Assembly: GCA_944362765.1 (NCBI GenBank)
Contig: CALVTP010000004.1
Span: 2,250 to 66,249, forward strand
Length of the DNA: 64,000 nt
Direction: 5' to 3'
From: an uncultured Clostridia bacterium
GTDB taxonomy: Bacteria; Bacillota; Clostridia; Christensenellales; DTU072
In this document: positions 1,244 to 56,133 of the stretch, one piece after another
How the letters are laid out: every line of letters starts with the position of its first letter
Position numbering within the stretch: the first letter of the stretch is position 1
Notes under the pieces: model-generated
What the model was told of the DNA's origin: nothing
The model's input: only the letters and a program-made list of their open reading frames with translations
Databases searched by the model: none
Program-made: the position numbers and the translations under genes

Positions 1244-2092
1244 ATGACCGATTACACCGATAAGATCCTGGACGGCAGAGCGGTAGCCAAACACATGGAG
1301 GCGGAAATTGCCCGAAAAATCGAACAGGAATTGGCGTCGGGCGCCGTAAGACCTGTGCTCGCTACTATAATAGTAGGGGAAAATCCTTCTTCCGTCACCT
1401 ACGTCAGGATGAAAGGGAACGCCTGTAAACGGGTCGGAATAGAACCGAGAAAAGTGGAACTTCCCGAAAACACCACTACTGAGGAACTCCTTTCCGTCAT
1501 CGACTCCCTGAACGCCGATCCCGACGTCTACGGCATACTCCTTCAGCATCCCGTACCGCGTTCCATCGACGAGCGCGCCTGCTTCGACAGAATTGCTCCC
1601 GAAAAGGACGTCGACGGCGTAGGCGTCAATTCTCTCGGGAAGACCGCTTTGGGGCTCCCCGGCTACCGCGCAGCCACCGCCAAAGCCATCATGAATATCC
1701 TGGAGTACTATAAAATCCCCCTTCAAGGAAAAGAAGCCGTCGTCATCGGCAGATCCCCGATACTCGGAAAGCCCGTTGCAATGCTGTTGTTGAATGCCGA
1801 TTGCACCGTCACCGTCACCCACACCAAAACGGTGGATATCGATAAAGTCGTCCGCCGAGCCGACATCGTCGTTGCCGCCTGCGGCGTGCCGCGATTCGTC
1901 AGACCCGAGTGGATAAAGCCCGGCGCAGTCGTCATAGACGCCGGATATAACGCGGGGAATGTCGGCGATGTCGATGAGGGAGCTTTCGAGAATGCGTCGT
2001 TGATGACTCCCGTACCCGGAGGAGTCGGTCCTGTCACAATCGCTTCTTTAATGCAGCAAACATTATTTTCTTTCTGCGATAGAAATAAATAG
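1244..2092 (+). CDS. folD: bifunctional methylenetetrahydrofolate dehydrogenase/cyclohydrolase
   Basis: YVRMKGNAC, GILLQHP, PEKDVDG, VIGRSPILGKP, TPVPGGVGPVT. RBS GGAGG 1234-1238 precedes ATG 1244. Confidence 0.95.
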   Translation: MTDYTDKILDGRAVAKHMEAEIARKIEQELASGAVRPVLATIIVGENPSSVTYVRMKGNACKRVGIEPRKVELPENTTTEELLSVIDSLNADPDVYGILLQHPVPRSIDERACFDRIAPEKDVDGVGVNSLGKTALGLPGYRAATAKAIMNILEYYKIPLQGKEAVVIGRSPILGKPVAMLLLNADCTVTVTHTKTVDIDKVVRRADIVVAACGVPRFVRPEWIKPGAVVIDAGYNAGNVGDVDEGAFENASLMTPVPGGVGPVTIASLMQQTLFSFCDRNK

Positions 2093-3304
2093 AGAAACGT
2101 TATTGCTCGCAAAATCGTTTATTTATAAAAAGCTTGTACCCCGTACGGGCTTTTTTCATAAGGAAAGACCTGATGCAGAAAGAAAAATGTTTGCTGCATG
2201 ACCCGCGTATCGGAACATATTTCACGGCACTTTCGGGCGAAAGAAACAAGTTTCCCGCAAGGGCTCCCTTGATTGTATGTCGATACTAATCGGCGGGAGT
2301 TTCGCCCGAAACCGCAGTCATTGATGCCTCCCGAGGCATAATTGCCTGCTTCGCCGCAAACTAACGCAATCCCGACATCAGTCTGTTTAAACAGCTTTTG
2401 CCTTTTGCTTGCCCCGATCCGCTCCGTACCCCGTACTTTACACGTTCGTCAACATATCGACGACTGTGTGTGATTTATATTGAGAGTTTGGTCGGTTGTA
2501 ACTTCTTTCTGCAAGAGAAATAAATAGAGAAACGTTATTGCACGCAAAGACGATATTGTGTAAAAAAGTTCGTACCCCGTACGAGCTTTTTTCATAAGGA
2601 AAAATATATGCAGAAAGAAAAATGTTTGCTGCATAAGCAAAGGACAGGAGCGAAGCGACTGTCCGTTTTGGAGCCAACTCTTATAATACCGAAGAGAAGG
2701 AAGAGATATAGTCTTAGAAAGATAGATTTTGCGGGTTATTAAAAATTTGTACATCAATTTTGCGGGGTCGTTATAAAACAACTTATACTATAAATTTAAG
2801 CGTAACAATGTTGACTATCGTGTAAAGTACGGGATACGGAGCGGATCGGGGCAAGCAAAAGGAATATAAGACGTTGGAGCAAGCATGAGCCTTGTTTGCG
2901 TTAGTTTGCGGCGAAGCAACCGGCGGAGGCGATAAAGCCTCTACCGGTTGCGGTTTCGGGCGAAATTGGCGAAGGGCTGTATCGACATACGCTCCGAGGC
3001 AACTCCCGTAGGGAGGAAACTTGTTTCTTTCGCCCGAAAGCGCCGTGAAATATGCCCCAAGCCGCGGCTATATAATTTTCTTCCCGCTCTATCCCTTCCT
3101 TATTGAAAAAGCTTATGCGTGCGTACAAGCTTTTCCATAAGGTTTTTCTTTGCGAGATATTAAAGTCCTCATACTCTAACTTTGCGGGAAGAAAATTATA
3201 AAAAATCGGTTGTAACTTCTTTCTGCAAGAGAAATAAATAGAGAAACGTTATTGCTCGCAAAAACGACATTGTGTAAAAAAGTTCGCCCGTTCGGGCGAA
3301 CTTT
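2051..3304. repeat. cluster 1 of modular palindromic repeats (modules X, P, Q, S, R), between convergent folD and sialidase
   Basis: X copies at 2066-2186, 2503-2619, 3071-3200 (inverted) and 3217-3304 (partial). P/Q at 2205-2456 (reverse) and 2808-3058 (forward). R at 2641-2734. All modules recur at 53379-56044. Confidence 0.92.
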
Positions 3305-3357
3305 CAAATGCGTTTAATTGATTCCGAGAGAAGTTTTATGGGCGCGGATTCGGGAAG

Positions 3358-4629
3358 CTACTTCAATTCGGAAAGGGAGAAGGTTGTGAATTTAATGTCT
3401 TCGTGCTTTGTGCAGTCTTCGAACAATACGGCGATTCTGCCGTCGGGGAGCTGAGCCGCGGAAGAATAAACGAATTCTCCGTCGGTTATCAACAGGCTGC
3501 GCGGGAAGGTCTTTCCGCCGTCGAAGGAAAGTCTTGCCGTTCCCAGGCGGCGTTTTTTAGGATCTGCCGCGTTGATGGTCAGAATTGCCTCTTTGCCGTT
3601 CTCCTCGACTCGTAAAGCTGTTATCTGACAGACGCATTGCGGTAGCTCCGGGTGAAGTTCGGGTTCCGTCCACGTTATGCCTGAATCGTTGGAACGGGAA
3701 ACCATAATCAAGCGTTTGGGATGATGATTCCTTAAAAACCATACCAATTCCCCGGAATCCAATTCGACTACCTGGCTTTCGGTAAGGTAAGTTCTCATCG
3801 GGAAAATCAAGGGGTTTTCTTTGCCGATATATCTGCCGCGGATAGGGGGCGTATCGGTGACCGACCAAGTCTTTCCGCCGTCGTCGGAGTAAATTAGGGC
3901 GGTAGTCAGTTTCATGGGCAGTTTGCCTAATCCGTAGTAAATCGGGAAAATCAATCTGCCGGCGTGCTCGCCGTGGCGCAGCTGAATTCCGTTTGCGGGA
4001 CCGGAGCCTATGAAGTGCCAGTTTTTGCCTTTTACCGAGGGGTTTAGCTCCAGGGGCTTTGACCAGGTTTTGCCGTGGTCGTCGGAACGTATCATCATCA
4101 GGAACGAAGTTTCGTACAGTTTATAGCCGCCTTCGCCGGTCAATACGTTGCCGCCGCTCCAGGTGCCGTCTTCGGCGACCGCATATTTTTCGGAGCCTGA
4201 CTCGTCGACCATTTCCCCGTCCTTCCACAAGAATTTTTTGCCGTTTCCGGTAACAAGCCTGGCGCCACCCGCATAGCCCGTCCCTTTCTTGCAGTTAAGA
4301 ATGCCGATACCCGCGGGGGTCATCGAATAGAGCATGAATACGGCGTCCTGCCGCTCGTCATAGAGCATGGCGGGGTCGATAGCCGCGGCGGAGTGCTTTT
4401 TGTCTTTACCGACCATTTTTACGGCGGTAATCTGCTCCGACCAGCTTTTTCCGCCGTCGGTAGAGATGCGGACGACCTTGTCGATGCGGTTCGGATTGTC
4501 GGCAGCGGTGAAAAAACGTTCGTCACAAGCTGCGACCAGAGTGCCGTCCTTCGTGCAGACGACGGAGGGAATGCGGTAGTTATCGGCATTGCCCGTAGCG
4601 CGTGAAAAAACAACGGAAAAATTATCCAT
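3358..4629 (-). CDS. exo-alpha-sialidase (GH33), no signal peptide
   Basis: YRIP motif near the N-terminus and five Asp-boxes (STDGGKSW, SDDHGKTW, SDDGGKTW, SNDSGITW, SFDGGKTF). Confidence 0.9.
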   Translation of the reverse strand: MDNFSVVFSRATGNADNYRIPSVVCTKDGTLVAACDERFFTAADNPNRIDKVVRISTDGGKSWSEQITAVKMVGKDKKHSAAAIDPAMLYDERQDAVFMLYSMTPAGIGILNCKKGTGYAGGARLVTGNGKKFLWKDGEMVDESGSEKYAVAEDGTWSGGNVLTGEGGYKLYETSFLMMIRSDDHGKTWSKPLELNPSVKGKNWHFIGSGPANGIQLRHGEHAGRLIFPIYYGLGKLPMKLTTALIYSDDGGKTWSVTDTPPIRGRYIGKENPLIFPMRTYLTESQVVELDSGELVWFLRNHHPKRLIMVSRSNDSGITWTEPELHPELPQCVCQITALRVEENGKEAILTINAADPKKRRLGTARLSFDGGKTFPRSLLITDGEFVYSSAAQLPDGRIAVLFEDCTKHEDIKFTTFSLSELK

Positions 4630-4714
4630 ATCAACCTCCTTTAAGCATTATACATTAAAATCGGCATTTTTTCAAGAGAATCCTATAAAAATAATCGATT
4701 GACAGGCGGGCTGC

Positions 4715-4743
4715 TTGCAAAACGTGCGTAGCTGTGGTAAAAT
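4715..4743 (+). promoter_or_regulatory. sigmaA promoter of the RimK-family locus
   Basis: TTGCAA, 17 bp, TG-extended TAAAAT. Confidence 0.6.
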
Positions 4744-4784
4744 GTTCAAATAGAAAACGCAAGTCCCGAACGGAGTTCACAATC

Positions 4785-5672
4785 ATGCAAAAAGCAGCCA
4801 TAATAATAAACGCATATCTTCGTCCGAAAAACGTCATACGACAAGCGGGACGGCTGTAAGAGGAGTTCGAAAAACGCGGAGTTTCGGCAGATATCATTCA
4901 AAATAACAGCTTTTTATGTCATTTGGAAGAGGACGGGGAAGTTTCCGTAAAGCTTGCCGGTTACGATTTTGTCGTCTATCTCGACAAAGATAAATACACG
5001 GCGCGGCTCCTGGAAAAGTCGGGCTTTTGCCTCTTCAACCGTTACGACGCGATAGAAAAATGCGACGACAAGATGACGACTGCTATCTTTCTTGCGGGAT
5101 CCGGGATACCGGTTCCGAAGACGCTCCCGGGGCTGTTGAGCTATTCCGAGGAGGACGAAATATCCGAAAAAAGTCTGAAAATCGTCGAAGAGGAGCTAGG
5201 ATATCCTATTATAATCAAGGGTTCCTACGGTTCGATGGGGCGTGAGGTCGACAAGGCGGACAACTTCTAGGAGCTTTTCCGCGCCGCAAAAAAATATCAA
5301 TTGAAACCGCACCTTTTTCAACGCTTTGTGTCGGAAAGCAGCGGCAGAGACATCCGCGTTGCGGTGATAGGAGGGAAAGCAATCCGGGCGATGGAGAGGC
5401 GCTCCGATATTGACTACCGCTCCAATATCGGGCTCGGTGCGGAAGGCGTTCCGTTCGATCCGCCCGCCGAAGTCGTCGAAATTGCCGAGAAGGCTGCCGT
5501 AATCTTGGGACTCGACTATTGCGGGGCGGATATTCTATTCGGTCGGCACGGTTATTACCTGACGGAAGTCAACTCCAATGCCTTTTTCGAAGGAATGGAG
5601 AAAGTCACCGGATGCAACATCGCCGCAGAATACGTCGATCACATCCTTTCAGAGGTCGGGAAGGGTAGGTAA
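4785..5672 (+). pseudogene. RimK-family ATP-grasp ligase interrupted by two in-frame stops
   Basis: One continuous frame from ATG 4785 with TAA 4857-4859 and TAG 5268-5270. Motifs CDDKMTT, IPVPKT, GYPIIIKGSYGSMG, DIRVAVIGG, DYRSNIGLG, CGADILF, EVNSN. Confidence 0.85.
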
Positions 5673-5747
5673 GTCTTGCGCTCCGGAAAGCTTTTCCGCT
5701 TTTTCAGGGAAGCGCTCGGGTGAGTATAAAAAAGCGATAAAAAACGC

Positions 5748-5776
5748 TTGATAAAATCGGCGGGGTGGTATATAAT
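5748..5776 (+). promoter_or_regulatory. sigmaA promoter of the DUF1858 gene/tRNA
   Basis: TTGATA, 17 bp, TATAAT. Confidence 0.7.
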
Positions 5777-5808
5777 AATTCATGACTTCACCAGGGAGGT
5801 TAAAAAGT

Positions 5809-6015
5809 ATGATAACCAAAGATATGGTCATCGGCGATGTGTTGGACAATGCAAAGAACCCCGAAGCGGTTGCCGAGGTTTTAATAGGACAATTCGGAAT
5901 GCATTGCCTGCAATGTCCCTGCTCCCGCAGCGAATCCATAGAGGAAGCCGCCATGGTGCACGGCGTGGACGCCGAAGTCATGGTCAAAGCGCTGAACGAA
6001 GCCGACAATAAATAA
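5809..6015 (+). CDS. DUF1858 (hybrid-cluster-associated redox) small protein
   Basis: [12 protein letters not shown]...[23 protein letters not shown] matches the family pattern; RBS GGAGG upstream. Confidence 0.85.
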
Positions 6016-6032
6016 TCCGTTACAGTCAATAT

Positions 6033-6106
6033 TGGAGTATGGTGCAATGGTAGCACAAGGGACTCTGACCCCCTTGATGTAAGTTCGATTCTTACTACTC
6101 CTGCCA
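6033..6106 (+). tRNA. tRNA-Gln(CUG)
   Basis: Cloverleaf folded by hand: acceptor TGGAGTA/TACTCCT, D-stem GTGC/GCAC, anticodon loop CT-CTG-AC, T-arm GTAAG-TTCGATT-CTTAC, discriminator G, encoded CCA. Confidence 0.93.
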
Positions 6107-6109
6107 CTG

Positions 6110-6133
6110 ACCCGCCGAAAAGGCGGGTTTTTT
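6110..6133 (+). terminator. intrinsic terminator after the tRNA
   Basis: ACCCGCC-gaaaa-GGCGGGT followed by a T-run. Confidence 0.85.
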
Positions 6134-6217
6134 GATGCCGAAAACGGTTATTATCGATATTATCCGGCGATGCCGCCGGCGAAATCAAAACTTTGTAGAA
6201 AAATTTATATAAATCAG

Positions 6218-6246
6218 TTGACAAAAATTTACCGCCATTGTATATT
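6218..6246 (+). promoter_or_regulatory. sigmaA promoter of the RHH-clpB operon
   Basis: TTGACA, 17 bp, TATATT. Confidence 0.75.
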
Positions 6247-6268
6247 ATTATCGAAAAAGGAGGCGCAT

Positions 6269-6925
6269 ATGAAAAAGAGCATGTACAGCCTGATGCTGGC
6301 GGACGAAGTCGTAAAAGCCGTTGACGAATTGGCGGCAGAACAGGGCACCAACCGTTCCAACATGATAAATCAGATACTTGCCGAGCGGCTGGAGCTGGTC
6401 ACCCCCGAAAAGCATGTCGGGCAGATATTCGACGTCATCGGCACGCTGATGGGCGGGCGCGGAGAGTACAGGATGTACTCCGAACCGAACAATCTCACCA
6501 TGTCGATAAAAAGTGTTTTAAAGTATCATTACCGCCCGACTATCCGCTACGAGGTCGAAATGCAGCGCAGCTTTACATCGACCGTCGGACAGCTGAAAAT
6601 CCTTTTCAGGACGACTTCGTCGGAGCTTTTAATGGAACTTACGCGTTTTTTCGGCTTGTGGATCAAGCTTGAAGGAATATACCTGAAGGAGTACTTCGGT
6701 GACCTCTTTCCGCACTACGGAATGGAGCCCGGACGCTTCACGAGGACGTTTGTGTCGTACGGTGAAAGCACTTACTCCGATAACGAAATAGGGGACGCGA
6801 TAGGTAACTACGTCGCTACATTCGACGAGATATTGAAAGGGTATCTTTCCGGAGAGTACAGGACGATGGAAGATATCGAAAACAGGTATATCGGGTACCT
6901 GAACAGCGGCGTTCGGTTGATATAA
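6269..6925 (+). CDS. protein with an N-terminal CopG/ribbon-helix-helix-like domain
   Basis: MKKSMYSLMLADEVVKAVDELAAEQGTNRSNMINQILAERL fits a beta-alpha-alpha RHH pattern; strong RBS AAGGAGG. Confidence 0.7.
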   Translation: MKKSMYSLMLADEVVKAVDELAAEQGTNRSNMINQILAERLELVTPEKHVGQIFDVIGTLMGGRGEYRMYSEPNNLTMSIKSVLKYHYRPTIRYEVEMQRSFTSTVGQLKILFRTTSSELLMELTRFFGLWIKLEGIYLKEYFGDLFPHYGMEPGRFTRTFVSYGESTYSDNEIGDAIGNYVATFDEILKGYLSGEYRTMEDIENRYIGYLNSGVRLI

Positions 6926-6955
6926 CTGCAATTTTCTAAAAAGGAGGCGAGATAT

Positions 6956-9553
6956 ATGAACGCACAGAAATTTACTAAAAAGTCGCTGGAAGCGCTGGGG
7001 AGCGCCGAAAGCATTGCAATAGAAAATCAAAACATACAGGTGATGCCCGAGCACCTTACCTACGCGCTTGTCGACCAGGACGGCGGACTTATACCGTCGC
7101 TTCTTAAAAAAGCGGGCGTCGACGTCGACAGGCTGCTGGCACTGTTGGACGGCGCTATTCAAAAGATTCCCGCCGTCAGCGGTTCGGGGAGAGAACCCGG
7201 GAAGATCTATATTTCCCCTCTCACCGATAAAATTCTGACCGGGGCGGAGCGCCTTAGGGACAAGTCGAAGGACGAATACGTTTCCGTCGAGCATATCATG
7301 CTGTCTGTTTTCGACCACGCGACGGAGGAATTGAAGTCGATTTTCCGCGCCATGGGCATTACCCGGACGGCGTTCGAAGAGGAGCTGAAAAAGGTCAAGA
7401 CCGACAGGGTGACTTCGGACGAACCCGAAAACGCCTATGACGCCCTGAATAAGTACGGTTTCGACCTTGTCGAGCGCGCCAAGCAGCAAAAACTCGACCC
7501 CGTCATCGGGCGGGACGCAGAAATAAGAAACGTCATTCGTATTCTTTCCAGGAAGACCAAAAACAACCCCGTTCTGATAGGTGAACCGGGCGTAGGCAAG
7601 ACAGCCGTAGTCGAAGGATTGGCTCAGCGTATTGTGCGCGGCGACGTCCCGGAAGGGTTGAAGGACAAGACGGTTTTTGCGCTGGATATGGGCGCGCTGA
7701 TAGCAGGCGCCAAGTTCAGGGGAGAGTTCGAAGAGAGACTGAAAGCCGTTCTGAACGAAATAAAAAAGAGCGAAGGCAGAATAATTTTATTTATCGACGA
7801 GCTCCATACCATTGTCGGAGCCGGCAAATCGGACGGAGCGATGGACGCGGGAAACCTTTTAAAGCCGATGCTTGCAAGAGGGGAACTTCATTGTATAGGC
7901 GCGACGACTTTGGACGAGTACAGAAAGTACATCGAAAAGGACGCCGCGCTCGAAAGGCGCTTCCAGCCCGTCACCGTCGACGAACCGACCGTCGAGGACA
8001 CGATATCGATACTGCGTGGGTTGAAGGAAAGGTACGAAGTGTACCACGGAGTACGCATTCACGATTCGGCGTTGATAGCGGCGGCTACGCTTTCGCACCG
8101 CTATATCTCCGACAGATTCCTCCCCGACAAAGCCATCGACCTTGTTGACGAAGCTTCTGCGACGATAAGGACGGAGATAGACTCCATGCCCGGCGAAATG
8201 GACGACATCAGACGGAGGATAATGCAGCTTGAAATAGAGGAAATTTCCCTTCAAAAGGAGTCCGACAAGCTTTCCGCCGAGAGGCTGGAGACCATTCGGA
8301 AGGAACTTGCCGACGACAAGGAAAAGTTCAACGCCATGAAAGCGGAATGGGCAAAAGAAAAGGAAAGTATCCACGCCGTATCCGACCTGAAAGCCGAAAT
8401 AGAGAAATTGAACGGCGAGATAGAGGCGGCGCAGCGTAACGGCGATTACGCCCTGGCGGCGGAGCTGAAGTACGGAAAACTTCCCCAATTACAAAAGAAA
8501 CTGGAGGATGCAAGCCGCGAATCGGGGAAAAAGTACTCCCTTTTGAGGGACACCGTCACCGAAGAGGAAATCGCCAAAGTCGTCTCCCGTTGGACGGGCA
8601 TACCGCTTACCAAGCTTATGCAGGGAGAGCGCGAAAAGATTCTCCATCTCGGGGACATCCTCCACGAGCGCGTAATAGGGCAGGACGAGGCGGTCACCAA
8701 GGTCACCGAAGCCATCATCCGTTCGCGGGCGGGGATATCCGACCCCAACCGCCCGATAGGCTCCTTCCTCTTCCTGGGACCTACCGGAGTAGGTAAGACG
8801 GAGCTTGCGAAAGCGCTTGCCGAAAGCCTTTTCGACGACGAGCACAACATCGTCAGAATCGATATGACGGAGTATATGGAGAAGTTTTCGGTCTCCCGTC
8901 TTATCGGCGCCCCTCCGGGATACGTCGGTTATGACGAGGGCGGACAGCTTACCGAAGCCGTCAGGAGAAAACCTTACTCCGTCGTGCTGTTCGACGAAAT
9001 AGAGAAGGCGCATCCTGACGTATTCAACATCCTTTTGCAGGTTTTGGACGACGGAAGGATAACCGATTCGCAGGGAAGGACAGTGGACTTCAAAAACACC
9101 ATAATAATTCTTACTTCGAATCTCGGTTCCCAATTTTTGCTGGACGGTATCGACGACAACGGCGAAATCTCGGAGGAAGCCAAGGAAAGCGTCGAAAAGC
9201 TTTTGAAGCAGAGCTTCCGTCCCGAGTTTTTAAACAGACTCGACGAAATCGTCTTCTACAAGCCGCTGACGAAAAAAGACGTCGTGAAGATTGTCGAACT
9301 GTTGGTAAAGGGACTCGAAAAACGGCTCGAAGACAGGCAGTTGAAGCTGGAAATCACTCCGAAAGCCAAAGAGCTCATCGCCGAGCTCGGTTACGACCCC
9401 GTCTACGGTGCGAGACCGCTGAAGCGGTTCATGCAAAGCAGGATCGAGACTCTTATCGCCCGCGTCATTCTCTCCGACGACCCCGCTCCCGGCGACGAGA
9501 TAGTCGTCGGCGCCGACAACGAAGATTTCCGCGTCGAAGTCAGGACGAAATAG
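6956..9553 (+). CDS. clpB: ATP-dependent chaperone ClpB
   Basis: Two AAA+ modules ([16 protein letters not shown]), coiled-coil middle domain, KYGKLP and GARPLKR motifs; 865 aa. Confidence 0.97.
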
Positions 9554-9593
9554 GCGTTCGGAACCTTCGATAGGCTCGGATTCGGGAATTTTG

Positions 9594-9619
9594 AAGCCCG
9601 CGAAACGTCGCGGGCTTTT
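9594..9619 (+). terminator. intrinsic terminator after clpB
   Basis: AAGCCCGCGA-aacg-TCGCGGGCTT plus TT. Confidence 0.8.
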
Positions 9620-9657
9620 CCGAGCGATTTTTTATCACGATCGGCGAAATTTGCTTA

Positions 9658-9686
9658 TTGACGAGAGGGAATATATATGCTAATAT
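9658..9686 (+). promoter_or_regulatory. sigmaA promoter of the ABC exporter
   Basis: TTGACG, 17 bp, TG-extended TAATAT. Confidence 0.6.
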
Positions 9687-9721
9687 ATATTTAAATATTT
9701 TAGATTGTGCAGGAGCCGCCT

Positions 9722-43447: not shown

Positions 43448-43475
43448 ATAAATAATTAATAAAGGCGGAGCCGAA

Positions 43476-47264: not shown

Positions 47265-47319
47265 GCGCAGAAAAAAATAAAAAACCTAATATATAGTGTT
47301 TAGGAGGTTATATATCACT

Positions 47320-48933
47320 ATGGACGACAACAGACAATACGGCGTAACTTTTTGGGAAGATCCCGATAAGATTTACGAAGCGCTGCACAAGCTGACCTCG
47401 CAACCCATCTACGAAGTCAAGAAAAGCGAAATGGATCGCATTCTTGTAGAGTATTTCGACACAAAATGCGCCAAATCGAAAGCCATTTCGACGGAAGCAA
47501 AGAAGTATATTCCGGGCGGAGTTCAACATAATCTTGCGTTCAACTATCCCTTCCCGATAGCAATCGCCAAAGCCAAAGGCGCTTACATGGAAGACGTCGA
47601 CGGCAACACATACATAGACTTTTTGCAGGCAGGCGGTCCGACCATTCTTGGCTCCAACAACGACGAAGTCCGTAACGAGGTCAAAAAGCTTATCGATTCC
47701 TGCGGACCCGTTACGGGGCTCCTTCACGAAGCGGAGCTTTTGCTTGCCAAGAAAATAAACGAGCATATGCCCGCGGTCGAGATGTTCAGAATGCTCGGTT
47801 CGGGCACCGAATCGGTGATGGCGGCTTTGAGGATCGCCAGGATCGAGACCAAGAACAAGAGAATCATCAAGATGGGCGGCGCATACCACGGCTGGTCAGA
47901 TCAGATGGTTTACGGCTTGAAGATCCCGGGAACCAGGCAGTTCCTCGAATCGCACGGCATTCCCGGCACCTGCTTCAAACTTACCGACGAGGTCAAACCC
48001 AACGACCTCGACATGCTCGAAAGAATGCTCCATAAGAACAAGTCCCGCGGCGGCACGGCGGCGGTCATCGTCGAACCGGTAGGTCCCGAATCGGGCACCC
48101 GTCCCGTTTCCAAGGATTACAACGCAGAGGCGATGAAGCTTGCGCATAAGTACGGCGCCTTGTTCATCTTCGACGAAGTCGTCACCGGCTTCCGTCTCGG
48201 TCTCGGCGGCGCGCAGGGCTACTTCGGCATAGAACCCGACCTCACTATCTTCGGAAAGATCATAGCGGGCGGCTATCCCGCGGCAGGCGGCGTCGGCGGC
48301 AAGAGACAATACGCATCGCTGATGGCGGCGGGCGTCGCGACGGGAAAACACCGCGCATACGTCGGCGGCACGCTGGCTGCAAACCCGATGAGCTCCCTTG
48401 CGGGCTACGAGTGCATAAAGCAAATAGAAGCCACAAACGCCTGCGTCAAAGCAGGACTTGCGGGCGACAGGCTGGCAAAAGGGCTTAAAGGGCTTGTCGC
48501 GAAATACAACCTTCCGTACGTTGTATACAACCAGGGTTCCATTGTCCACCTCGAATGCACCGGTGCGATGAGCTTCGATTTCAGCTCCTTCAACCTTTTG
48601 AAGTCGTTGAGCGGCATACTCACCCACCAAAGGATGATCTATAAGAGAAAGGACGCCATGGAACACATGGGCGCCGCGTATATGGCAAACGGCATAGTCA
48701 CGCTTGCAGGCAGCAGGCTCTACACTTCGCTTGCCGACTACGAGAACAACTTCGAGGTCATCGACGAGGCGTTGAGACGTTTCGACAAAGTGTTCGCGAT
48801 GGTCGAAAATACCGGCGAAGGCGTCGAGATCGACTCATTGATGGACGGCATCAAGAACGAGCTCAACAAGAAAAAAGCCAAAAAAGCCGCCGCGGCGAAA
48901 GCCGAGGCCGCTTTGAAGACGGAAGCCGAATAA
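47320..48933 (+). CDS. class III PLP aminotransferase (GSA aminomutase-like fold)
   Basis: DVDGNTYIDF, SGTESVMAALRIAR, YHG, FDEVVTGFR, PDLTIFGKIIAGG, GGTLAANP. Confidence 0.88.
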   Translation: MDDNRQYGVTFWEDPDKIYEALHKLTSQPIYEVKKSEMDRILVEYFDTKCAKSKAISTEAKKYIPGGVQHNLAFNYPFPIAIAKAKGAYMEDVDGNTYIDFLQAGGPTILGSNNDEVRNEVKKLIDSCGPVTGLLHEAELLLAKKINEHMPAVEMFRMLGSGTESVMAALRIARIETKNKRIIKMGGAYHGWSDQMVYGLKIPGTRQFLESHGIPGTCFKLTDEVKPNDLDMLERMLHKNKSRGGTAAVIVEPVGPESGTRPVSKDYNAEAMKLAHKYGALFIFDEVVTGFRLGLGGAQGYFGIEPDLTIFGKIIAGGYPAAGGVGGKRQYASLMAAGVATGKHRAYVGGTLAANPMSSLAGYECIKQIEATNACVKAGLAGDRLAKGLKGLVAKYNLPYVVYNQGSIVHLECTGAMSFDFSSFNLLKSLSGILTHQRMIYKRKDAMEHMGAAYMANGIVTLAGSRLYTSLADYENNFEVIDEALRRFDKVFAMVENTGEGVEIDSLMDGIKNELNKKKAKKAAAAKAEAALKTEAE

Positions 48934-49020
48934 TCTCTTCGGTCGTTCGGAATATTATAATTGTATAATGTGTACGCGTGTGTCCGTGCGGGTGCGCGCG
49001 TACAGGGAGGGTATTTAAAA

Positions 49021-49656
49021 ATGGTTGAACAAGCCGCAAAACTCCGCATACTCGACTGCTGCAAAAAGCTTTCGGAGCATCAGTTGACGGCTCCGGGTGA
49101 TGTTGTCAGCGTAAGAGCCGAGGGCGGAATGCTTATTACGAACCCCGAAACCGAGATGTCGTCGATTACCGAAAACGACATCCGTTTTGTGGGGAGAGAT
49201 GAGGCGAAGGGCACGCAGGAAGCACTGCACCTTGCAATTTACGCCCATCGTGAAGACATCAACGCCGTAATCATGAACCATGCGCCGTTCTGCGTAGGGA
49301 TAGCTAAAAGGCTGAAATCGTTCCCCGCAACTCTGGACGACATGGCGCAGATAATAGGGCATACCGCCAAGGTCTCTCCGTCCGAAGAAGCGACCGACAT
49401 TTTAAGGACGCTTACCGGAAGGAACGCCTGTCTTATCTCGGGCGGCGGCGTAATCGCCACGGGAAGGACGTTGGACGAAGCTTTTACCGGCTCTTTGGTG
49501 CTCGAAAAAGGCGCATTATGTTATGTCGGTTCCGCCATCATCGGAAAACCCGTAAAGATAGGGCTTTTCGACGCCGTTTTGATGAGAGCGGTTTACAAAC
49601 TGAAATACTCCAAAAAAGATCAGGCGGCAAAACTCAAAGAGGAGCAGGGAGGCTGA
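49021..49656 (+). CDS. class II aldolase/adducin-fold protein lacking Zn ligands
   Basis: LHLAIYAHREDINAVIMNH and ACLISGGGV: the HxH and NHG motifs are eroded. Confidence 0.75.
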   Translation: MVEQAAKLRILDCCKKLSEHQLTAPGDVVSVRAEGGMLITNPETEMSSITENDIRFVGRDEAKGTQEALHLAIYAHREDINAVIMNHAPFCVGIAKRLKSFPATLDDMAQIIGHTAKVSPSEEATDILRTLTGRNACLISGGGVIATGRTLDEAFTGSLVLEKGALCYVGSAIIGKPVKIGLFDAVLMRAVYKLKYSKKDQAAKLKEEQGG

Positions 49657-49657
49657 T

Positions 49658-50296
49658 ATGACGGAATCCGAAGTCAGGCAGGCGGTAAAGGACGCCGGCG
49701 TTAAATTACTCGAAAACAACCTCGTTCAGGGCACTTGGGGAAATATCTCGATACGCCTTAGCGACAAAAAGATGGTGGTCACTCCTTCGGGCATGGACTA
49801 TATCCGTATGCGTCCCGAGGACACCGTCGTCGTGGATATAGAAACATTGGAATACGTGTCCGAAGTAAAACCCACTTCGGAAAAGAAGATACATGCCGCC
49901 ATTTATCGCGATCGTCCCGAGATAGGCGCGGTTATCCACTCCCACCCGTTGTGGAGTTCGGCAGCCGCTGCGGCAAGGAAGGAGATCCCTGTGCTCTGCG
50001 AAGAGCATAAAAGATTGCTGGGCGGCGACACCGTCAGGGCGGGCGCCTACGGGCTTCCCGGCACTAAGAAGCTGACAAACGGCGCCGTAGAGGCTATGAA
50101 GGACAGGAACGCATGCTTTTTGTCCAATCACGGCATAGTTTGCTGCGCCGAGACGATAGAGGGCGCTTTCGAAGTCTGCAAGGCGATGGAAGAAAACAGC
50201 CGTGCTTATATAGAAAGCGTTGTAAAACGGGAACTCGGAAAGGATTCCGTCGATATCGACGATATCTTTGAAGTGTTTTATAAACGGATAAATTAA
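49658..50296 (+). CDS. class II aldolase (fuculose-phosphate aldolase-like)
   Basis: GTWGNIS, TPSG, PTSE..IH, IHSHP, SNHG intact. Confidence 0.9.
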   Translation: MTESEVRQAVKDAGVKLLENNLVQGTWGNISIRLSDKKMVVTPSGMDYIRMRPEDTVVVDIETLEYVSEVKPTSEKKIHAAIYRDRPEIGAVIHSHPLWSSAAAAARKEIPVLCEEHKRLLGGDTVRAGAYGLPGTKKLTNGAVEAMKDRNACFLSNHGIVCCAETIEGAFEVCKAMEENSRAYIESVVKRELGKDSVDIDDIFEVFYKRIN

Positions 50297-50312
50297 TTGT
50301 GGAGGCGGAGTA

Positions 50313-51938
50313 ATGGAAGGAAAGATGAGCTTTGCTCAAAAACTCAATGCGTTTTCCCATAAGCTGTTCGGAACAAAACCGAACGACGGGGACGTTCAGC
50401 CGAAAGAGGCTTGGAGCTACGGTATAACGGGTATCGGACAAAACTTTATTTGTACCGTTATAGGTTCGTATCTGACCGTTTTTATGACGGACGCGTTGGG
50501 ATTCAACAACGACATAAAACTTGGTACATTGACAGCGTCGGTCGCGGTGGCGATATTGATGTTGGTCGCCAGAATATTCGACGCGTTGAACGACCCGATT
50601 ATGGGCTCCGTAGTCGACTACACCCGTACCAAATGGGGTAAGTGCCGTCCCTATCTTTTGTGGATGGCTATTCCTATCGGTTTATTGACGATATTATGCT
50701 TCCTGCCCGTTTATCCGAGGGATATGGAAGGCTTCCTCGCCTGCGGACTTATCTATGTAGTGTGGTCGGTGGCGTACACGATAGCCGACGTTCCGTATTG
50801 GGGATTGTCCACCACGATGACGAACAACACCACAAAGCGCGGCAATATTCTGACAATAGTGCGTCTTATGTGTACGGCGGGAGCGGGTATCGTCACCATC
50901 TTCGTCCCGATTATCACCGATGCCGTCACCGCCGAATTTAAAAATTCCGACGGCTATGTACTGGCACAATATGCGGATCAATACAGAAATACGCTGCAAT
51001 GGACGTACTTTATTATAGCAATAGTTCTGGTTGTCATTTCAATCCCGATGTTCTATATCGGTTTCAAAAACACCAAAGAGCGCTTCGGAACGATACAAAA
51101 CGGAGAAAAACCCCGTTCGCTCGGTAAAAACCTCAAATTATTGTTCAAAAACGACCAGGTCATGCTCGTCGTTCTGTCGGGTATACTTGGCGGTGCGAGA
51201 ATGGTGTATACATATACCGGCGGATTGTATTTTTGCAAATACGCGTTGGGCTCCGAATCGGCGTACAGCATTCTGACAATGCTGGTCATTCCGGGCGGAT
51301 TGATAGCTTCGGTATTGTGCCCGTGGCTCACCAAAAAATTCACCAAGAAATGGTCGTTCATCGGCTCGCATATTCTGGGAGCAGCCGCAATGGTATTGAT
51401 GCTGTTCATGTGGGACTTCGACAACGGTAAATTCATCGGCGGCGGCGAAGTCGGCACGGCAGGGCTGGTGGTCGCGGTAATCTGCATGATAATCGTCGGT
51501 ATCCCGCAAGGTATCGCCAATATCATGAGTTACGCAATGATAGGAGACACAGTCGAATACCTCGAATGGAAGACCGGCGAGAGGGCGGAAGGTATCTGCT
51601 TCTCGATGCAGACATTTATTTCCAAGATAGGCATGGCTGTCGGCGCTTTCATCGGTGTCCTTGCTTACAATATGAGCGGTATAAGCTCCGATGACCCCGT
51701 CGGCTCTATGACGATTGAAGGCTTGAACGACTTGTGGCTGATGCTTGTTCTGTCGAGCGCCGTAAGCTTTGTCGCTTGCGTTATCCCGCTGTTCTTCTAC
51801 CACATCACCGAGGATAAACAGCGCTGGTACGTCGGTGAGATAAGAAAAAGAAAGATAGCTTCCGGCGAACTTGCAGCCGAAACCGCCGGAGACGCCGAGA
51901 ATGTCGAAATGACGGTCGGCGAAGACAATAACGATTAA
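50313..51938 (+). CDS. glycoside-pentoside-hexuronide (MelB-like) MFS symporter
   Basis: RIFDALNDPIMG..VD.TRTKWGKCRPYLL, YTIADVPYWGL, DTVEY.EWKTG.RAEG. Confidence 0.9.
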   Translation: MEGKMSFAQKLNAFSHKLFGTKPNDGDVQPKEAWSYGITGIGQNFICTVIGSYLTVFMTDALGFNNDIKLGTLTASVAVAILMLVARIFDALNDPIMGSVVDYTRTKWGKCRPYLLWMAIPIGLLTILCFLPVYPRDMEGFLACGLIYVVWSVAYTIADVPYWGLSTTMTNNTTKRGNILTIVRLMCTAGAGIVTIFVPIITDAVTAEFKNSDGYVLAQYADQYRNTLQWTYFIIAIVLVVISIPMFYIGFKNTKERFGTIQNGEKPRSLGKNLKLLFKNDQVMLVVLSGILGGARMVYTYTGGLYFCKYALGSESAYSILTMLVIPGGLIASVLCPWLTKKFTKKWSFIGSHILGAAAMVLMLFMWDFDNGKFIGGGEVGTAGLVVAVICMIIVGIPQGIANIMSYAMIGDTVEYLEWKTGERAEGICFSMQTFISKIGMAVGAFIGVLAYNMSGISSDDPVGSMTIEGLNDLWLMLVLSSAVSFVACVIPLFFYHITEDKQRWYVGEIRKRKIASGELAAETAGDAENVEMTVGEDNND

Positions 51939-52023
51939 AACAGGTTTCCGAAACTTCGGAAAAGGGAACCCTAAACAGCATTTAACATATACCTGCGCTG
52001 CAAGGCGCCGGGTGGAGGAGAGT

Positions 52024-53385
52024 ATGTGTAAACGTAAAAAATTGACCAGGGCAGAGAGACTCAGAAGAGAATTGGTCGAAGACCACATCAAGACCAGGCG
52101 CGAAATGTTTGAAGACAGAGCCCGGCTGAACAGGCACGTGTTCCGGTACGGCGCGCCGCCTCCCGGCTCGGTGCTGTATGACGAGCATCACGATATGTCG
52201 GCGGCAAACGGCGTCTTCGTGAACGGCAGACAGAAGGATGCGCTTACGGTAATACGTCCCTCCGGCAGGGGTTATGAAGACATCGGAACGGGAGCCTACA
52301 ACACCGAAAAACCGGATTTTTATCGTGTGGCTCTGGCAGGGCGTCCCTACGAACCGGTCTTCCCGACCGCGGAGTCGAAGAAGTTCTTCATCGGCTGCAT
52401 TAAAAGGGCGCTGCCGCTCTTTCCGATAGAGACGGAAAGCTATTCGATTCTCGCGAATTCGGCGTATTTTGTCTTTGCGTCGTACGACCAAACAAGGATA
52501 AGTCTGCAGCGCTTCGTTTCGTTGGTTATCGAAACTTATGCCGACTATTACAACGAGGCTTTCGGGCATTCGGGTACTCCGTTCAGGGGGAGACCCGAAT
52601 TGAAAAAGCTGGATAAGCTCGAAGAGATTGCCGACCAGATAACCTTGGTTCAAAGGCAGCCGATAGTGCGCGGACACCGCCCGGACTATCCCTTCTCTTC
52701 GATAGGCGAAGGCGAGGGCGGACTGACAAGCACAACCGCGTTCAACGATCGCTTCGGCGCCGCAGGCAAGAAGGCGTTGCAGGAGGCAAGTACCGAGGAG
52801 TATTCCAAGCTTCACGCCGTCGACCTTTCTACCAGGCTGTTCGGTTTGAATCCCCGCCTCACCGAAGTAATCGAGGAAACGCTTATCGATTACGGCTGCT
52901 TTACCAAGCGCGCAATGCCCAATTTCCTCATGCCTAAGGTCGTTGCCGAAGTCAACGAGCGCTCCGGAGCCTCCTTCAAAAAGATTTCGCGGAAAATGGG
53001 CGGCGGCTGGCGCACCAGGTATGAGCTTCTGGTCAAAACCATTTGCGAATTGATTATCGAGTCGAAGCGCACGTTCGACTACGCCTGGCGCACTTTGCAG
53101 GTGGAAAAGTACCAAAAACGCCCCGTCGCAATCGACGTTGCCGAGGAGCTTTTTGATCGCCTCGGCTACTCGATAGACCAAATCTTCCAAATGATGGGTT
53201 TTGCTTATTGCGCCGTCATCAACGGCACCGTCCAATACTATAATGAAGATCTCCTAGTTCGTTTGATAAAGGACTACGCCTTAGAGCACAATTGCCCCGT
53301 CACGAAGGTTATAGAGTTGTTCGGCATCCGTAACTCCCACGAAGATCCCCAAAGGGTACTGCGCGTCTCTTCTTATTTTATGTAA
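52024..53385 (+). CDS. catalytically degenerate Y1 HUH (IS200/RAYT-like) transposase-fold protein with tandem HTH-like repeats
   Basis: Manual alignment to the RAYT pattern over 52318-52704. NHxH reads NSAY (52456-52467), YNxxxxRxGHLFQGR reads YNEAFGHSGTPFRGR, RYIHxNP reads TLVQRQP, and DYxWSS reads DYPFSS. RBS GGAGG precedes ATG 52024. Confidence 0.75.
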   Translation: MCKRKKLTRAERLRRELVEDHIKTRREMFEDRARLNRHVFRYGAPPPGSVLYDEHHDMSAANGVFVNGRQKDALTVIRPSGRGYEDIGTGAYNTEKPDFYRVALAGRPYEPVFPTAESKKFFIGCIKRALPLFPIETESYSILANSAYFVFASYDQTRISLQRFVSLVIETYADYYNEAFGHSGTPFRGRPELKKLDKLEEIADQITLVQRQPIVRGHRPDYPFSSIGEGEGGLTSTTAFNDRFGAAGKKALQEASTEEYSKLHAVDLSTRLFGLNPRLTEVIEETLIDYGCFTKRAMPNFLMPKVVAEVNERSGASFKKISRKMGGGWRTRYELLVKTICELIIESKRTFDYAWRTLQVEKYQKRPVAIDVAEELFDRLGYSIDQIFQMMGFAYCAVINGTVQYYNEDLLVRLIKDYALEHNCPVTKVIELFGIRNSHEDPQRVLRVSSYFM

Positions 53386-53937
53386 TTTTCTTCCCGCAAG
53401 ATTAAAGTTAGAGAACTTTAATTGCTCGCTTGAACAAAGCCTTATGGAAAAGTTCGTACCCCGTACGAGCTTTTTTCATAAGGAAGGATTAATTGCGGGA
53501 AGAAAATTACATACCCGCGGCTTGGGGCATATTTCACGGCGCTTTCGGGCAGGACAGGAGCGAAGCGACTGTCCGTTTTGGAGCCAACTCTTATAATACC
53601 GAAGAGAAGGAAGAGATATCGTCTTAGAAAGATAGATTTTGCGGCGGAGTGACGAAATGAGAGAGCGGCATACGACGTATGCCGCGAAAGATATTTCTAT
53701 ACTCCGCCACAAAAGATAATTTGTAAGGCGATAGAAATTTCTTCGAAGCGGTATTATTTTGATTAAAGTGGGGTACTATAAGCCAATATAGAGACAGCAT
53801 AGGGCATTATTCAAACAAGCTTTAGTTGAAGAAGCTCTTACAAGAAGAAATATTATTTATTGAATCGGTATGCTATAATTTCCGCATGAAAACAAATATA
53901 AATCTGAAAATTAATTCAAAAAACTCAGCAAAAACTA

Positions 53938-53966
53938 TTGCAATTTATCCCCAATTATGATATAAT
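53938..53966 (+). promoter_or_regulatory. sigmaA promoter P1 with no downstream ORF
   Basis: TTGCAA, 17 bp, TG-a-TATAAT, followed by TATAGGGGA. Confidence 0.75.
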
Positions 53967-54517
53967 TATAGGGGACGGATACGGATAATCGATAAGCTCT
54001 CGTTCCGTCGGCTCGAAGGGTGTTTGCCCTTGGGGCAAACACTTGGGCTACGCACTTTTGCTACCACAAAAGTGCGCGCCCGCGCTCGCTCGAATCGTGG
54101 CAGAGTCGTTAATATCGTGGCAGTTTTACATCACAAGGTAGTCGCTTCGCTTCGATTAGACTAGACCCACCCAACCGCCCACAAGTTTGCCGCTATGCGG
54201 GATAGGAATATTAATATTAGTATACGCATACCGCTATCCCCTTTCGCGTTCTCATGGCGATAACATCACACAAGGTTGCCGCTACGCGGATGATGGGGAA
54301 TATATAAGCTATAATTTGTTTTAACGCATTACGATATTCTTTCAATTCGCTTATATACTGGCGATATTACATTTCAATGTGTTTCTTCGCTCCGATATGA
54401 TTTAACTATATAAGCATATGGAATATTATTGATATAACAAATCATTTTAATTATTTAATTTCAGCAGGAAATTAAATATAAAATCGAAAATTATATCAAA
54501 TAATTTAACAAAAAGTA

Positions 54518-54546
54518 TTGCATTTTTAGGCATAATGTGATATAAT
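54518..54546 (+). promoter_or_regulatory. sigmaA promoter P2, paralog of P1
   Basis: TTGCAT, 17 bp, TG-a-TATAAT, followed by TTAAGGGGA; 580 bp downstream of P1. Confidence 0.75.
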
Positions 54547-54644
54547 TTAAGGGGATAGGGTTGCGATTACCGCCGAGGGGCGGAAGGTTTGGTGTGCGCA
54601 CTTTGCCGGGCTAAGCTGCGCGGCGGGTGTCTGCTCGAATCGTG

Positions 54645-54918
54645 GCAGAGTCGTGAGTATCGTGGCGGTTTTACGGCGTTGTTTGTGAAGTAAGGCAGAG
54701 TGGTGGGTATCATGGCGGTTTTATATTTTTGTTCAAATCATAGCTAAGTTTTTAATATCCTGGCAATCTTACGGCGCTATTGTTGTAATAAGTCATAGTC
54801 GTAAGTATCGTAGCTGTTTTACGGCTTTTTCGGTAAGATACAGCATGGTCGTAATAAGCATGGCGTTCTTATTATCTTTTAAATCTTTGCGTAGTCGTGA
54901 TACATTTAGCAATTCTAC
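54645..54918 (+). repeat. degenerate ~50-bp tandem array, about six units
   Basis: Core TATCGTGGC variants start at 54658, 54708, 54756, 54806, 54856 and ~54902. Confidence 0.7.
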
Positions 54919-56133
54919 ATCACAAGGTGGTCGCTTTGTTCCGAGAAGACTAGACCCACCCAACCGCCCACAAGGTTGCCGCTGCGCGGGATAGGAATAT
55001 TAATATCAGGATACGCATATCGTTATTCCGCTTTCGCATTCTCATAACTACATCTTTCCACAAGGTTGCCGCTGCGCGGATTGGAAATATAAAATAGTCA
55101 TGCTGTTATTCTGTATTTCCATTACAGCAGTTTTCCTCAAGGTTCCCGCTTCGCGGATAAGTGAATGGAAAATAGGTAATTAGTTCAAGTACTCCTATCG
55201 GTGAAGCCTGCTTTACCGTTTATTATAGCAAATTTAATATATTTATAATACCCGGCTATATTTCAATAATACCGCTTCGAAGAAATTTCTATCGCCTTAA
55301 AAATTATCTTTTGTGGCGGAGTATAGAAATATCTTTCGCGGCATACGTCGTATGCCGCTCTCTCATTTCGTCACTCCGCCGCAAAATCTATCTTTCTAAG
55401 ACGATATCTCTTCCTTCTCTTCGGTATTATAAGAGTTGGCTCCAAAACGGACAGTTGCTTCGCTCCTGTCCTGCTACGCGGGTATAATTTTCTTCCCGCA
55501 TCAATAGCTCCTTATGAAAAAAGTCCGTACGGGGTACGAACTTTTCCATAAGGGTTTGTTTTAACGAGCAATAAAAGTACTCTTACTTAAATCTTGCGGG
55601 AAGGGCTACAACCGACCAAACTCTCACTATAAAATACAGCCGTTGAGATGTAGACGAGCGTGTAAACTGTGAGATACGGAGCGGATTGGGGCAAGCAAAA
55701 GACAAAAGCTGTTTGAGTAGACTAAAGTCGGGATTGCGTTAGTTTGCGGCGAAGCAACCGGCGGAGGCGATGAAGCCTCTACCGGTTGCGATTTCGTGCG
55801 AAATTGGCGAAGGGCTGTATCGACATACGCTCCGAGGCAACTCCCGAAGGGAGGGAACTTGTTCCTTTCGCTCGAAAGCGCCGTGAAATATGCCCCTAGA
55901 CGCGGGTATACTATAATTTTCTTCCCGCATTAATAACTCCTTATGAAAAAAGTCCGCACGGGTGGCGAACTTTTTTATAAGGGTCTGTTCTCGCGAGCAA
56001 TTATAGTTCTCTTACTTAAATTTCGCGGGAAGAAAATTATAGTAAAATATATATTATATATACGCGCGCGTATGATAGAATGAGATACGGAGAAGTCTGC
56101 CCAAAACTTCTCTCAACTCATTCAGAGGTAAGT

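Follow-up and report, generated by a model that had tools for sequence, protein, structure and literature searches.

A stop-codon-anchored palindromic repeat with an outer stem extending into host genes in an uncultured Clostridia bacterium

The stretch of DNA analysed in this study (the window; 64,000 nucleotides (nt), C4:2250-66249 of a 1.71-Mb, 68-contig assembly that is 92% complete) derives from an uncultured Clostridia bacterium and contains seven copies of a non-coding palindromic repeat of approx. 135 nt, referred to as X. Two genes in the window run directly into such copies, folD (1238-2092) and an open reading frame (ORF) of 457 amino acids (aa) at 52012-53385. FolD of the window is 90% identical to FolD of Candidatus Stercoripulliclostridium merdigallinarum, a metagenome-assembled genome (MAG) of a chicken-gut Clostridia bacterium, and the exact FolD protein of the present genome has no database record. 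X loci were called in the window and in the whole assembly with an iterated nhmmer profile of 144 positions. An original prediction made from the sequence of the window had listed seven copies of an element resembling transposable elements of the miniature inverted-repeat type (MITEs) or REPINs, which are pairs of repetitive extragenic palindromic (REP) sequences. The profile detected exactly seven loci, which differ by a few bases from the predicted coordinates; three of the seven are located on the minus strand.

Four copies follow folD. The first array unit, copy c1 (2052-2199, profile match 2063-2192, plus strand), has a predicted folding energy of -54.3 kcal/mol (z -7.5). Its outer stem consists of ATGCAGCAAACATTATTTTCTTTCTGC and GCAGAAAGAAAA-ATGTTTGCTGCAT, and its left arm is identical with the final nine codons' worth of folD, the stop codon of which (TAG) lies at 2090-2092. 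The right arm is followed by a tail and a spacer module of about 285-300 nt, termed Y (2201-2500, plus strand), which starts with ACCCGCG and carries the repeats D2, I2 and I10. Copy c2 (2500-2634, profile match 2500-2626, plus strand), delimited by the profile and by sequence reading, is an internal unit. Here, the end of Y (GGTTGTAAC) takes the place of the left tip, and the folD-derived ATGTTTGCTGCAT is kept in the right arm. An inverted Y module (2808-3067, minus strand) belongs to the converging half of the island and carries the repeats I8, I10 and I14 as well as D2 and D10, the latter two in common with 55648-55921. It is followed by copy c3 (3062-3202, minus strand; -49.2 kcal/mol, z -9.2) with the arms TATAATTTTCTTCCCGC / GCGGGAAGAAAATTATA. 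Copy c4 (3214-3304, plus strand) is partial and covers only profile positions 9-98. Through repeat D3, it shares 96% identity with the left part of c2, and it ends with its own hairpin and a T-run; c2 and c4 are local duplicates with the same folD arm.

The remaining three copies are found behind the second ORF. The left arm of copy c5 (53380-53513, profile match 53380-53520, plus strand; -60.2 kcal/mol, z -11.2) contains the stop codon TAA (53383-53385) of ORF 52012-53385. In the calculated fold of c5, all on the plus strand, helix P1 is formed by 53380-53399 and 53493-53512, helix P2 by 53400-53423 and the terminator-like helix P3 by 53441-53482; the constant tail ACCCGCGGCTTGGGGCATATTTCACGGCGCTTTCGGGC occupies 53514-53550. 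Copy c6 (55477-55612, minus strand) is an internal unit whose left tip, read in its own orientation, is replaced by the Y end GTAGCCC. A tail with a Y module (55607-55907, minus strand; repeats D2, I2, I11 and I17) separates it from copy c7 (55901-56046, profile match 55901-56041, minus strand), which has the arms CTATAATTTTCTTCCCGC / GCGGGAAGAAAATTATAG, folds with -52.4 kcal/mol (z -9.8) and has no long ORF as an anchor.

Single full copies adopt one closed fold with energies of -49 to -60 kcal/mol and z-scores of -7.5 to -11.2. The outer stem P1 of approx. 17 bp corresponds to the "terminal inverted repeats" and starts on the stop codon of the host gene in copies that open an array. It is followed by the small hairpin P2, the long central hairpin P3 and the constant tail of approx. 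30 nt. The central hairpin proposed originally is present and longer than described, namely CCTTATGGAAAAG-TTCGTAC-ccc-GTACGAG-CTTTTTTCATAAGG. The arrangement of A-run, hairpin and T-run has the shape of a two-way intrinsic terminator, and the pattern AAAAG-stem-loop-stem-CTTTTTT recurs in nearly all copies. Judged from the A-tract/stem/T-tract design and their sense-strand G·U bias, P2 and P3 most likely form the terminator and 3′-end structure in the sense transcript of the upstream gene. Both terminal variants, TTCTTCCCGCA/TGCGGGAAGAA and TTCTTTCTGCA/TGCAGAAAGAA, were found as predicted. The second one is confined to the folD array (c1, c2 and c4) and has a left arm made up of coding sequence of folD. 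The TA reported at the end of several copies is there as well; it is part of a palindromic TAA...TTA whose TAA is the stop codon of the upstream gene and thus does not represent a target-site duplication.

Genome-wide, the profile detected approx. 130 non-overlapping loci, which are spread over more than 36 contigs and include 118 full-length copies; X accounts for about 1% of the assembly. Islands of sequence repeated at least three times are 0.5-3.5 kb long and sum up to approx. 83 kb or 4.9% of the assembly. More than 40 separate islands are located behind housekeeping genes, and the islands contain no credible ORFs. Unique sequence on the left and repeated sequence on the right flank 59 X copies; another 55 have repeats on both sides and 12 on the left only. 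The constant tail (ACCCGCGG...) forms the right flank of approx. 115 of the 130 copies, and even the three "solo" copies carry the same tail of approx. 30 nt (ACCCGCGGCTTGGGGCATATTTCACGGCG) after the right arm. Consecutive copies are mostly arranged in the same orientation (++ 30, -- 29), followed by the converging (+- 17) and the diverging (-+ 2) order. The spacers between them fall into few families with lengths of approx. 260, 285, 420 and 430-455 nt. Between islands, spacers are conserved to at least 92% and X to approx. 73%, and the conserved blocks start at the right end of X.

In the window, the 285-nt spacer Y is represented at 2201-2500, 2808-3067 and 55607-55907. It folds as a domain of several helices closed by GGGGCA…TGCCCC. 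It occurs in 16 full copies in the genome and is better conserved than X. Whole hairpins of Y have been exchanged between copies for different, still complementary sequence, in the case of one long hairpin for an unrelated one; 17 pairs of the fold occur in at least two Watson-Crick types. The G·U balance does not point to one strand of Y, both of which fold about equally well. A search of the whole window against Rfam 15 at gathering threshold gave no match for X, Y or other spacers and identified only a tRNA at 6033-6103. In array-internal copies of X, a spacer end takes the place of the left tip (…GGTTGTAGCC followed directly by CTTCCCGC), and the median perfect terminal repeat measures 9 nt, compared with 18 nt in copies that open an array. 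Of 117 copies, 102 have their nearest relative in another island and only 15 in their own, on which grounds local duplication as the sole source of the arrays was rejected. Contigs from other samples skip 411, 835 or 848 nt, which corresponds exactly to one or two whole units. Taken together, relatives in other islands and the skipping of whole units indicate mobility or recombination of units, both within a locus and from one locus to another. Rather than being a free-standing element, X forms part of mosaic composite arrays as one of their modules.

The position of X relative to the upstream genes was examined in the 62 copies with a unique left flank, designated array-first copies. In 45 of these, an ORF of at least 100 codons ends in or at the left arm, and in 33 the TAA of TAATTTTCTTCCCGC is the in-frame stop codon of such an ORF. 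As only 6.1% of the TAA trinucleotides in the genome close a frame of this length, the binomial probability of 33 out of 62 is 5e-24. Since TAA represents 52% of all stop codons, the probability that all 33 anchored stops are TAA amounts to 6e-10. Host genes are ordinary ones and include dnaE, guaA and the genes for pyruvate:ferredoxin oxidoreductase (PFOR) and an ABC transporter, among others. Anchoring is one-sided, as the right ends do not coincide with stop codons of converging genes. In copies without the in-frame stop, ORFs run 20-30 nt into X, whose first 28 nt contain stop codons in each of the three frames. The anchoring may reflect a functional coupling of P1 folding to the termination of translation. 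The final codons of folD (1238-2092; …TLFSFCDRNK) are situated inside the X palindrome, where the TAG aligns with the third in-element stop of the canonical X, and several other ORFs, e.g. at C5:47503, draw their final 7-9 codons from X. At C7:7500-8250 of the same genome, a gene ending with …AKIFE is followed by TAATATTCTTCCCGG, which resembles the left arm of X, by a plain terminator without a right arm and by a frameshifted IS200. This arrangement might represent a decayed or else a "proto" X.

Complementarity of the two arms does not end at the stop codon. Past the stop, it continues into the host gene for 3.1 nt on average compared with 1.06 ± 0.17 nt with permuted flanks (2000 permutations, maximum 1.78). 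The mirrored letters invariably form an inserted stretch of differing length, flanked by the constant portion of the right arm on one side and by the constant tail on the other. The guaA gene shows a 15-nt extension (AACGATAGAGTGGGAG-TAA … TTA-CTCCCACTCTATCGT-ACCCGCG). The C-terminus of its product (…TIEWE) is canonical and aligned to the last position of Pfam GMP_synt_C, which demonstrates that the left side is native coding sequence. Two guaA paralogues (C17:28400-28960 and C51:1380-1930) of approx. 70% DNA identity share an identical stretch of their last 27 nt and the same X with its 15-nt extension, suggesting gene conversion across the boundary between gene and X. In folD, the C-terminus …MQQTLFSFC is specified by the left arm ATGCAGCAAACATTATTTTCTTTCTGC. 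Ca. S. merdigallinarum shares this C-terminus but uses other synonymous codons (CTGTTTTCGTTTTGC), and the Pfam alignment of FolD reaches residue 279 of 284. Over approx. 25 nt, the right arm GCAGAAAGAAAA-ATGTTTGCTGCAT mirrors the synonymous codons of the present genome. A 10-nt extension at an rplQ-like gene is common to the orthologous loci of two sister species, G007 and G010. Handles of this type denote species; G000 is the present genome and G013 the genome of L002. The extension is also seen in G013 (1.52 nt compared with 0.66 nt, p 2e-4). Continuation of the stem into gene-specific codons argues that the right arm is templated from the left arm and the gene end and is not a transposase-binding repeat.

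Covariation was analysed in a 32-sequence alignment from four species with a user-specified structure, and G·U and A·C cells were counted in 113 distinct copies. In the alignment, 90.1% of the cells were paired compared with 83.6% in shuffled alignments and 41-54% in slid controls, and 26 pairs were changed on both sides compared with 11.5 after shuffling. The terminal covariation noticed in the window proved to be real and stronger than noted, with 15 of 18 outer-stem pairs changed on both sides. The original prediction was to be abandoned if only the seven copies existed and covariation was not significant; what was found are approx. 130 loci and a covariation reached by none of 500 shuffles. 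The helices differ in the way they vary. In P1, 95% of the cells are paired and nearly all changes lead from one Watson-Crick pair to another. One-sided and double changes occur in a ratio of 6:39 in P1 and of 67:22 in P3 (Fisher 4e-12). G·U cells relate to A·C cells as 24:26 in P1, 229:61 in P3 and 90:33 in P2. The sense-strand G·U bias indicates that P2 and P3 behave like RNA helices on the strand of the upstream gene. In contrast, P1 shows neither a strand preference nor a wobble stage and therefore behaves like a DNA palindrome. Covarying ends are usually read as an RNA structure or as a transposase site; X carries RNA-type and DNA-type signals together, and the G·U to A·C balance combined with the ratio of one-sided to double changes offers a practical way to separate both. 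Concerning the earlier proposal that pairing of the ends is selected or enforced by the copying mechanism, non-random pairing was verified, and of the two alternatives copying is favoured by the Watson-Crick switches and the extension into coding sequence.

A family-wide search with the covariance model R1 of X gave at least 42 matches each in G000 and G013, 18 in G007, nine in G010, three in G001 and one each in G018 and G004. Thus, seven of the 22 species of the genus are positive, and the other 16 sampled genera of the family did not contain any match. The sister family of G013 possesses the arms ATTGATTTCTTTGCCGAA/TTCGGCAAAGAAATCAAT with a ATTGATCGATTGCCGAA variant, which are quite unlike the arms of G000, and the TGA inside the arm terminates a long ORF in 11 of the 23 copies that were sampled. 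Nineteen other species have plain short terminators at the orthologous PFOR stop sites, from which it follows that the arrays are lineage-specific gains. At locus L085 (G001:C1:229169-232326), the right end of an intact IS200 that is near-identical to the G000 copy abuts the 3′ half of Y, an X and a tail, and this Y-X fragment is 84% like that of G000. The junction suggests that island fragments may have been transferred between species by hitch-hiking together with IS200.

Considering all these results, we interpret X as a non-autonomous, non-coding palindromic terminator module at gene 3′ ends, whose P1 is kept complementary by templated DNA synthesis, and assign to this interpretation a probability of roughly one half. 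According to the proposed mechanism, the DNA would be opened at the junction between right arm and tail. In the folded hairpin, the 3′ end located at its right foot would act as primer, with the left arm and subsequently the end of the upstream gene as template, before the extended strand is rejoined to the tail. Nicking at the X/tail junction might supply this 3′ end; alternatively, it might arise through intrastrand template switching in the course of replication, which at a quasi-palindrome would yield an identical product with no need for a dedicated nuclease. Mismatches between the arms would be repaired in this way, and the last 1-15 or more nt of the gene would be added as an inverted copy. 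X and its partner modules have presumably spread to different loci within one genus. Either route would explain double changes of the Watson-Crick type only, arms that track synonymous changes in the coding left arm, and the variable length of the inserts. Among known mutational mechanisms, the correction of quasi-palindromes through intrastrand template switching and the addition of P-nucleotides at opened hairpins produce a templated arm copy and palindromic letters at the foot of a hairpin, the same pattern as in P1. Both are known as sporadic events and are not known as a regular feature of a repeat family or of its junction with host genes.

Several observations weigh against a templated terminator module. 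A nicking enzyme, transposase or recombinase linked to X was not identified in the genome. Internal copies have retained the full right arm despite their replaced left tip, which indicates that templating is not continuous at every copy. The two guaA loci represent one event and are not independent. Anchoring on stop codons could result from a short target motif (TAAT, or TTGAT in G013) in combination with purifying selection in a compact genome, which would not involve a functional link to translation. A terminator consensus scan detected some copies only, and these on the antisense strand; the terminator role of P3 is deduced from its shape and G·U bias alone, and RNA contigs over X and Y are few in a shallow metatranscriptome. 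Furthermore, the Logan contigs of eight DNA/RNA runs, which break at repeats, did not include an empty allele, and divergence of the orthologous sites in other species is too high to fix the right boundary. As no empty allele was caught, the insertion boundaries and any target duplication are left undefined. Finally, 19 X loci lie within 300 bp of contig ends, and the order of arrays and the copy number are uncertain due to the fragmentation of the 68-contig MAG.

More tentatively, X and its partners could be a new kind of mobile DNA that inserts at the stop codons of ordinary genes as a folded hairpin whose own 3′ end primes DNA synthesis on the target gene. If this is true, each insertion writes an inverted copy of the last codons of the host gene into the element and creates a terminal repeat templated by the target; the recognition stem would then include the stop codon, which is TAA in one family and TGA in the other.

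The strongest alternative, which we nevertheless consider unlikely, explains P1 as a functional RNA helix of the 3′ untranslated region that closes over the stop codon, e.g. for stabilisation of the 3′ end of the mRNA or for coupling of downstream folding to translation termination, with complementarity, also that inside the gene, maintained by compensatory evolution under selection. This explanation accounts for the exact position of the stop in two families with different stop codons, and the stretch melted by a ribosome positioned on the stop would be about as long as P1. The RNA-type bias of P2 and P3 and the retention of the same extension at the orthologous loci of G007 and G010 also fit. 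However, P1 itself passes almost without G·U intermediates and, unlike P2 and P3, has as many A·C as G·U cells. Perfect inserted extensions of 15 and 25 nt are hard to reach by point mutation, and the right arms kept by internal copies without a left tip argue against a helix under selection, too.

Mobilisation in trans appears less probable still. In this case, X would be a REPIN- or PATE-like element cut at the foot of its hairpin by an HUH Y1 enzyme, either a TnpA of the IS200 type or a REP-associated tyrosine transposase (RAYT), and extension of the arm would be a by-product of a free 3′-OH that is elongated before resealing. Such a cut creates exactly the primer-template required for extension. 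REP/REPIN-RAYT systems and IS200/IS605-derived palindrome-associated elements resemble X in that they form hairpins, do not duplicate their target and are processed as single strands in folded form, and IS200/IS605 elements read their target by base pairing with a guide inside the element. As judged from filled sites, X likewise shows no duplication and a strict orientation; the unit of X plus spacer bears a hairpin at either end, and short candidate target motifs precede the element body, TAAT in G000 and TTGAT in G013, the latter of which is the known ISDra2-type target. The genome contains two IS200 Y1 loci, one intact and one broken, and an IS200 abuts the Y-X fragment in G001. Y1 was found in five of seven X-positive and in three of 15 X-negative species, which is a weak association (Fisher p 0.052). 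On the other hand, no Y1 match was obtained in G013, which harbors at least 42 copies, or in G010. The search for IS200 elements with the same ends as X, which had been suggested along with the prediction, was negative: the IS200 ends (…CCCCGCGATAGTCGCGGGG… and …CCACCCGCTAGGCGGGTGGATATTTATT) are unlike X, and the IS200 copies are located behind ordinary terminators and not in X. The arm tips of X, which is one long three-helix palindrome, lack a conserved GTAG-type REP motif, and a flanking or co-varying RAYT is missing.

ORF 52012-53385 was considered as a RAYT candidate. By eye, it displays COG1943/RAYT-like motifs without the HUH histidines, and X comes after its stop codon in both G000 and G013. 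It has no sequence match in Pfam, NCBIfam or the PDB and none to an HUH domain. The gene is present as a single copy in all 22 species of the genus including those free of X, with 37-68% identity. Its identity as a RAYT was rejected as it belongs to no matching family and is a single-copy core gene regardless of X; it is not a marker of the X system. The REPIN label is not supported, given that the sole HUH Y1 genes are those of ordinary IS200 copies and the neighbouring ORF is a core gene independent of X.

It is highly improbable that X is a classical MITE, i.e. an internally deleted element of the IS630/Tc1 type or of another DDE family with transposase-binding ends and TA duplication. Correia elements of Neisseria and RUP of the pneumococcus are IS630-type MITEs with a TA duplication, conserved arms and a DDE parent. 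They share with X a similar size (100-155 bp), terminal inverted repeats, a high copy number and effects on neighbouring transcripts; X differs by the lack of conserved arms, TA duplication and DDE parent. From the original "MITE/REPIN-like" assignment, the description as a dispersed, repeated, non-coding element without an ORF holds: X is small (~135 nt), occurs in many dispersed copies (~130) and bears terminal inverted repeats with TA at both ends. The MITE label does not. The flanks of X are similar in inverted and not in direct orientation, the left flank being a gene end; a direct target duplication is missing and the right flank is the constant tail ACCCGCGG, and the TA belongs to the palindrome and to the stop codon. 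Anchoring is strictly one-sided. The arms exist in at least nine variants within the genome and are entirely different in G013, yet stay complementary. The suggested search for IS630 was negative, as PF13358 (DDE_3) had no match in the 92%-complete assembly, and no multi-copy repeat that bears an ORF was found. The MITE reading is already contradicted on three defining features. Finally, an integron-like cassette system, in which X would be an attC-like folded hairpin for a tyrosine recombinase, can hardly be upheld: conservation of structure over sequence, the common orientation of units, the overlap with stop codons and a unit number that varies between samples agree with it, but the assembly has a single tyrosine recombinase gene and no integron integrase, the X arms contain no R''/R' core sites (RYYYAAC/GTTRRRY), and more than 40 islands behind housekeeping genes stand in place of one platform, with "cassettes" that are few repeated non-coding families.

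Full-text literature searches did not retrieve any account of the X family or of stop-codon-anchored palindromic repeats with target-copied arms. X most resembles SPRITE, BOX and repeats of the BIME (bacterial interspersed mosaic element)/REP type, among which anchoring and a target-templated arm are undescribed. The BIMEs of E. coli are mosaics of REP units and, like X, build a modular intergenic mosaic with a variable number of modules that is co-transcribed and folds extensively. BOX elements (boxA-boxB-boxC) form a comparable intergenic mosaic, whose modules recombine, vary in number and are co-transcribed and folded (PMC3049150). In contrast to X, BOX and BIME consist of short modules and have neither a fixed stop-codon register nor a gene-specific arm. 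SPRITE, described in 2011 with approx. 30 copies and AAAA/TTTT ends only (PMC3049150), is a dispersed non-coding repeat composed of a long hairpin and a T-rich tract, which is found at gene 3′ ends, is enriched between convergent genes and has neither a known transposase nor a demonstrable target duplication (PMC3049150). Both the long hairpin with a subsequent T-rich tract and the location at gene 3′ ends and between convergent genes were observed for X. Unlike X, SPRITE has no reported anchoring on stops, gene-copying outer stem or arrays with partner modules (PMC3049150). The closest case retrieved, of an unrelated kind, is a group IIB1 intron that sits in the stop codon of groEL (Gomes et al. 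2025, PMC12584367). It parallels X as a mobile element positioned in the stop codon of a housekeeping gene but is a large ribozyme with a reverse transcriptase and has one target gene, whereas X uses dozens (PMC12584367). The RVT_1 reverse transcriptase domain is absent from the present genome.

The region between c5 and c6 displays further features. Two 210-nt arms (53549-53758 and 55265-55474) that are 99% complementary surround an ORF-free centre of 1.5 kb. Two near-consensus sigma-70 promoters (TTGCAA-17-TATAAT with an upstream TG) are located at 53938-53966 and ~54518-54546, each heading a structured non-coding unit of approx. 790 nt; the two units are paralogous (D4 and D11 repeats). A degenerate array with a period of approx. 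50 nt (54088-54822) comprises at least five units like GGCAGAGTCGTGAGTATCGTGGCGGTTTTAC with spacers of approx. 19 nt; it lies downstream of the second sigma-70 promoter and has no ORF or Rfam match. Moreover, the 23-24-nt motif CACAAGGTTGCCGCTGCGCGGAT occurs five times (at ~54187, 54270, 54976, 55059 and 55135) with a spacing of approx. 80 nt inside both promoter-led units.

X and its partner modules make up about 5% of a small gut genome and replace ordinary terminators behind core genes such as dnaE, PFOR, guaA and folD. They sometimes supply the last codons and the stop of a gene, with effects on 3′-end annotation, on MAG assembly through contig breaks, and on expression models in this group. 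The mirror-copied right arm points to a DNA-copying mechanism that is undescribed for bacterial repeats. If the templated extension reflects the insertion or maintenance of X, each copy would keep a record of its past locations, and a templated outer stem that copies its host gene would, if confirmed, be new biology.

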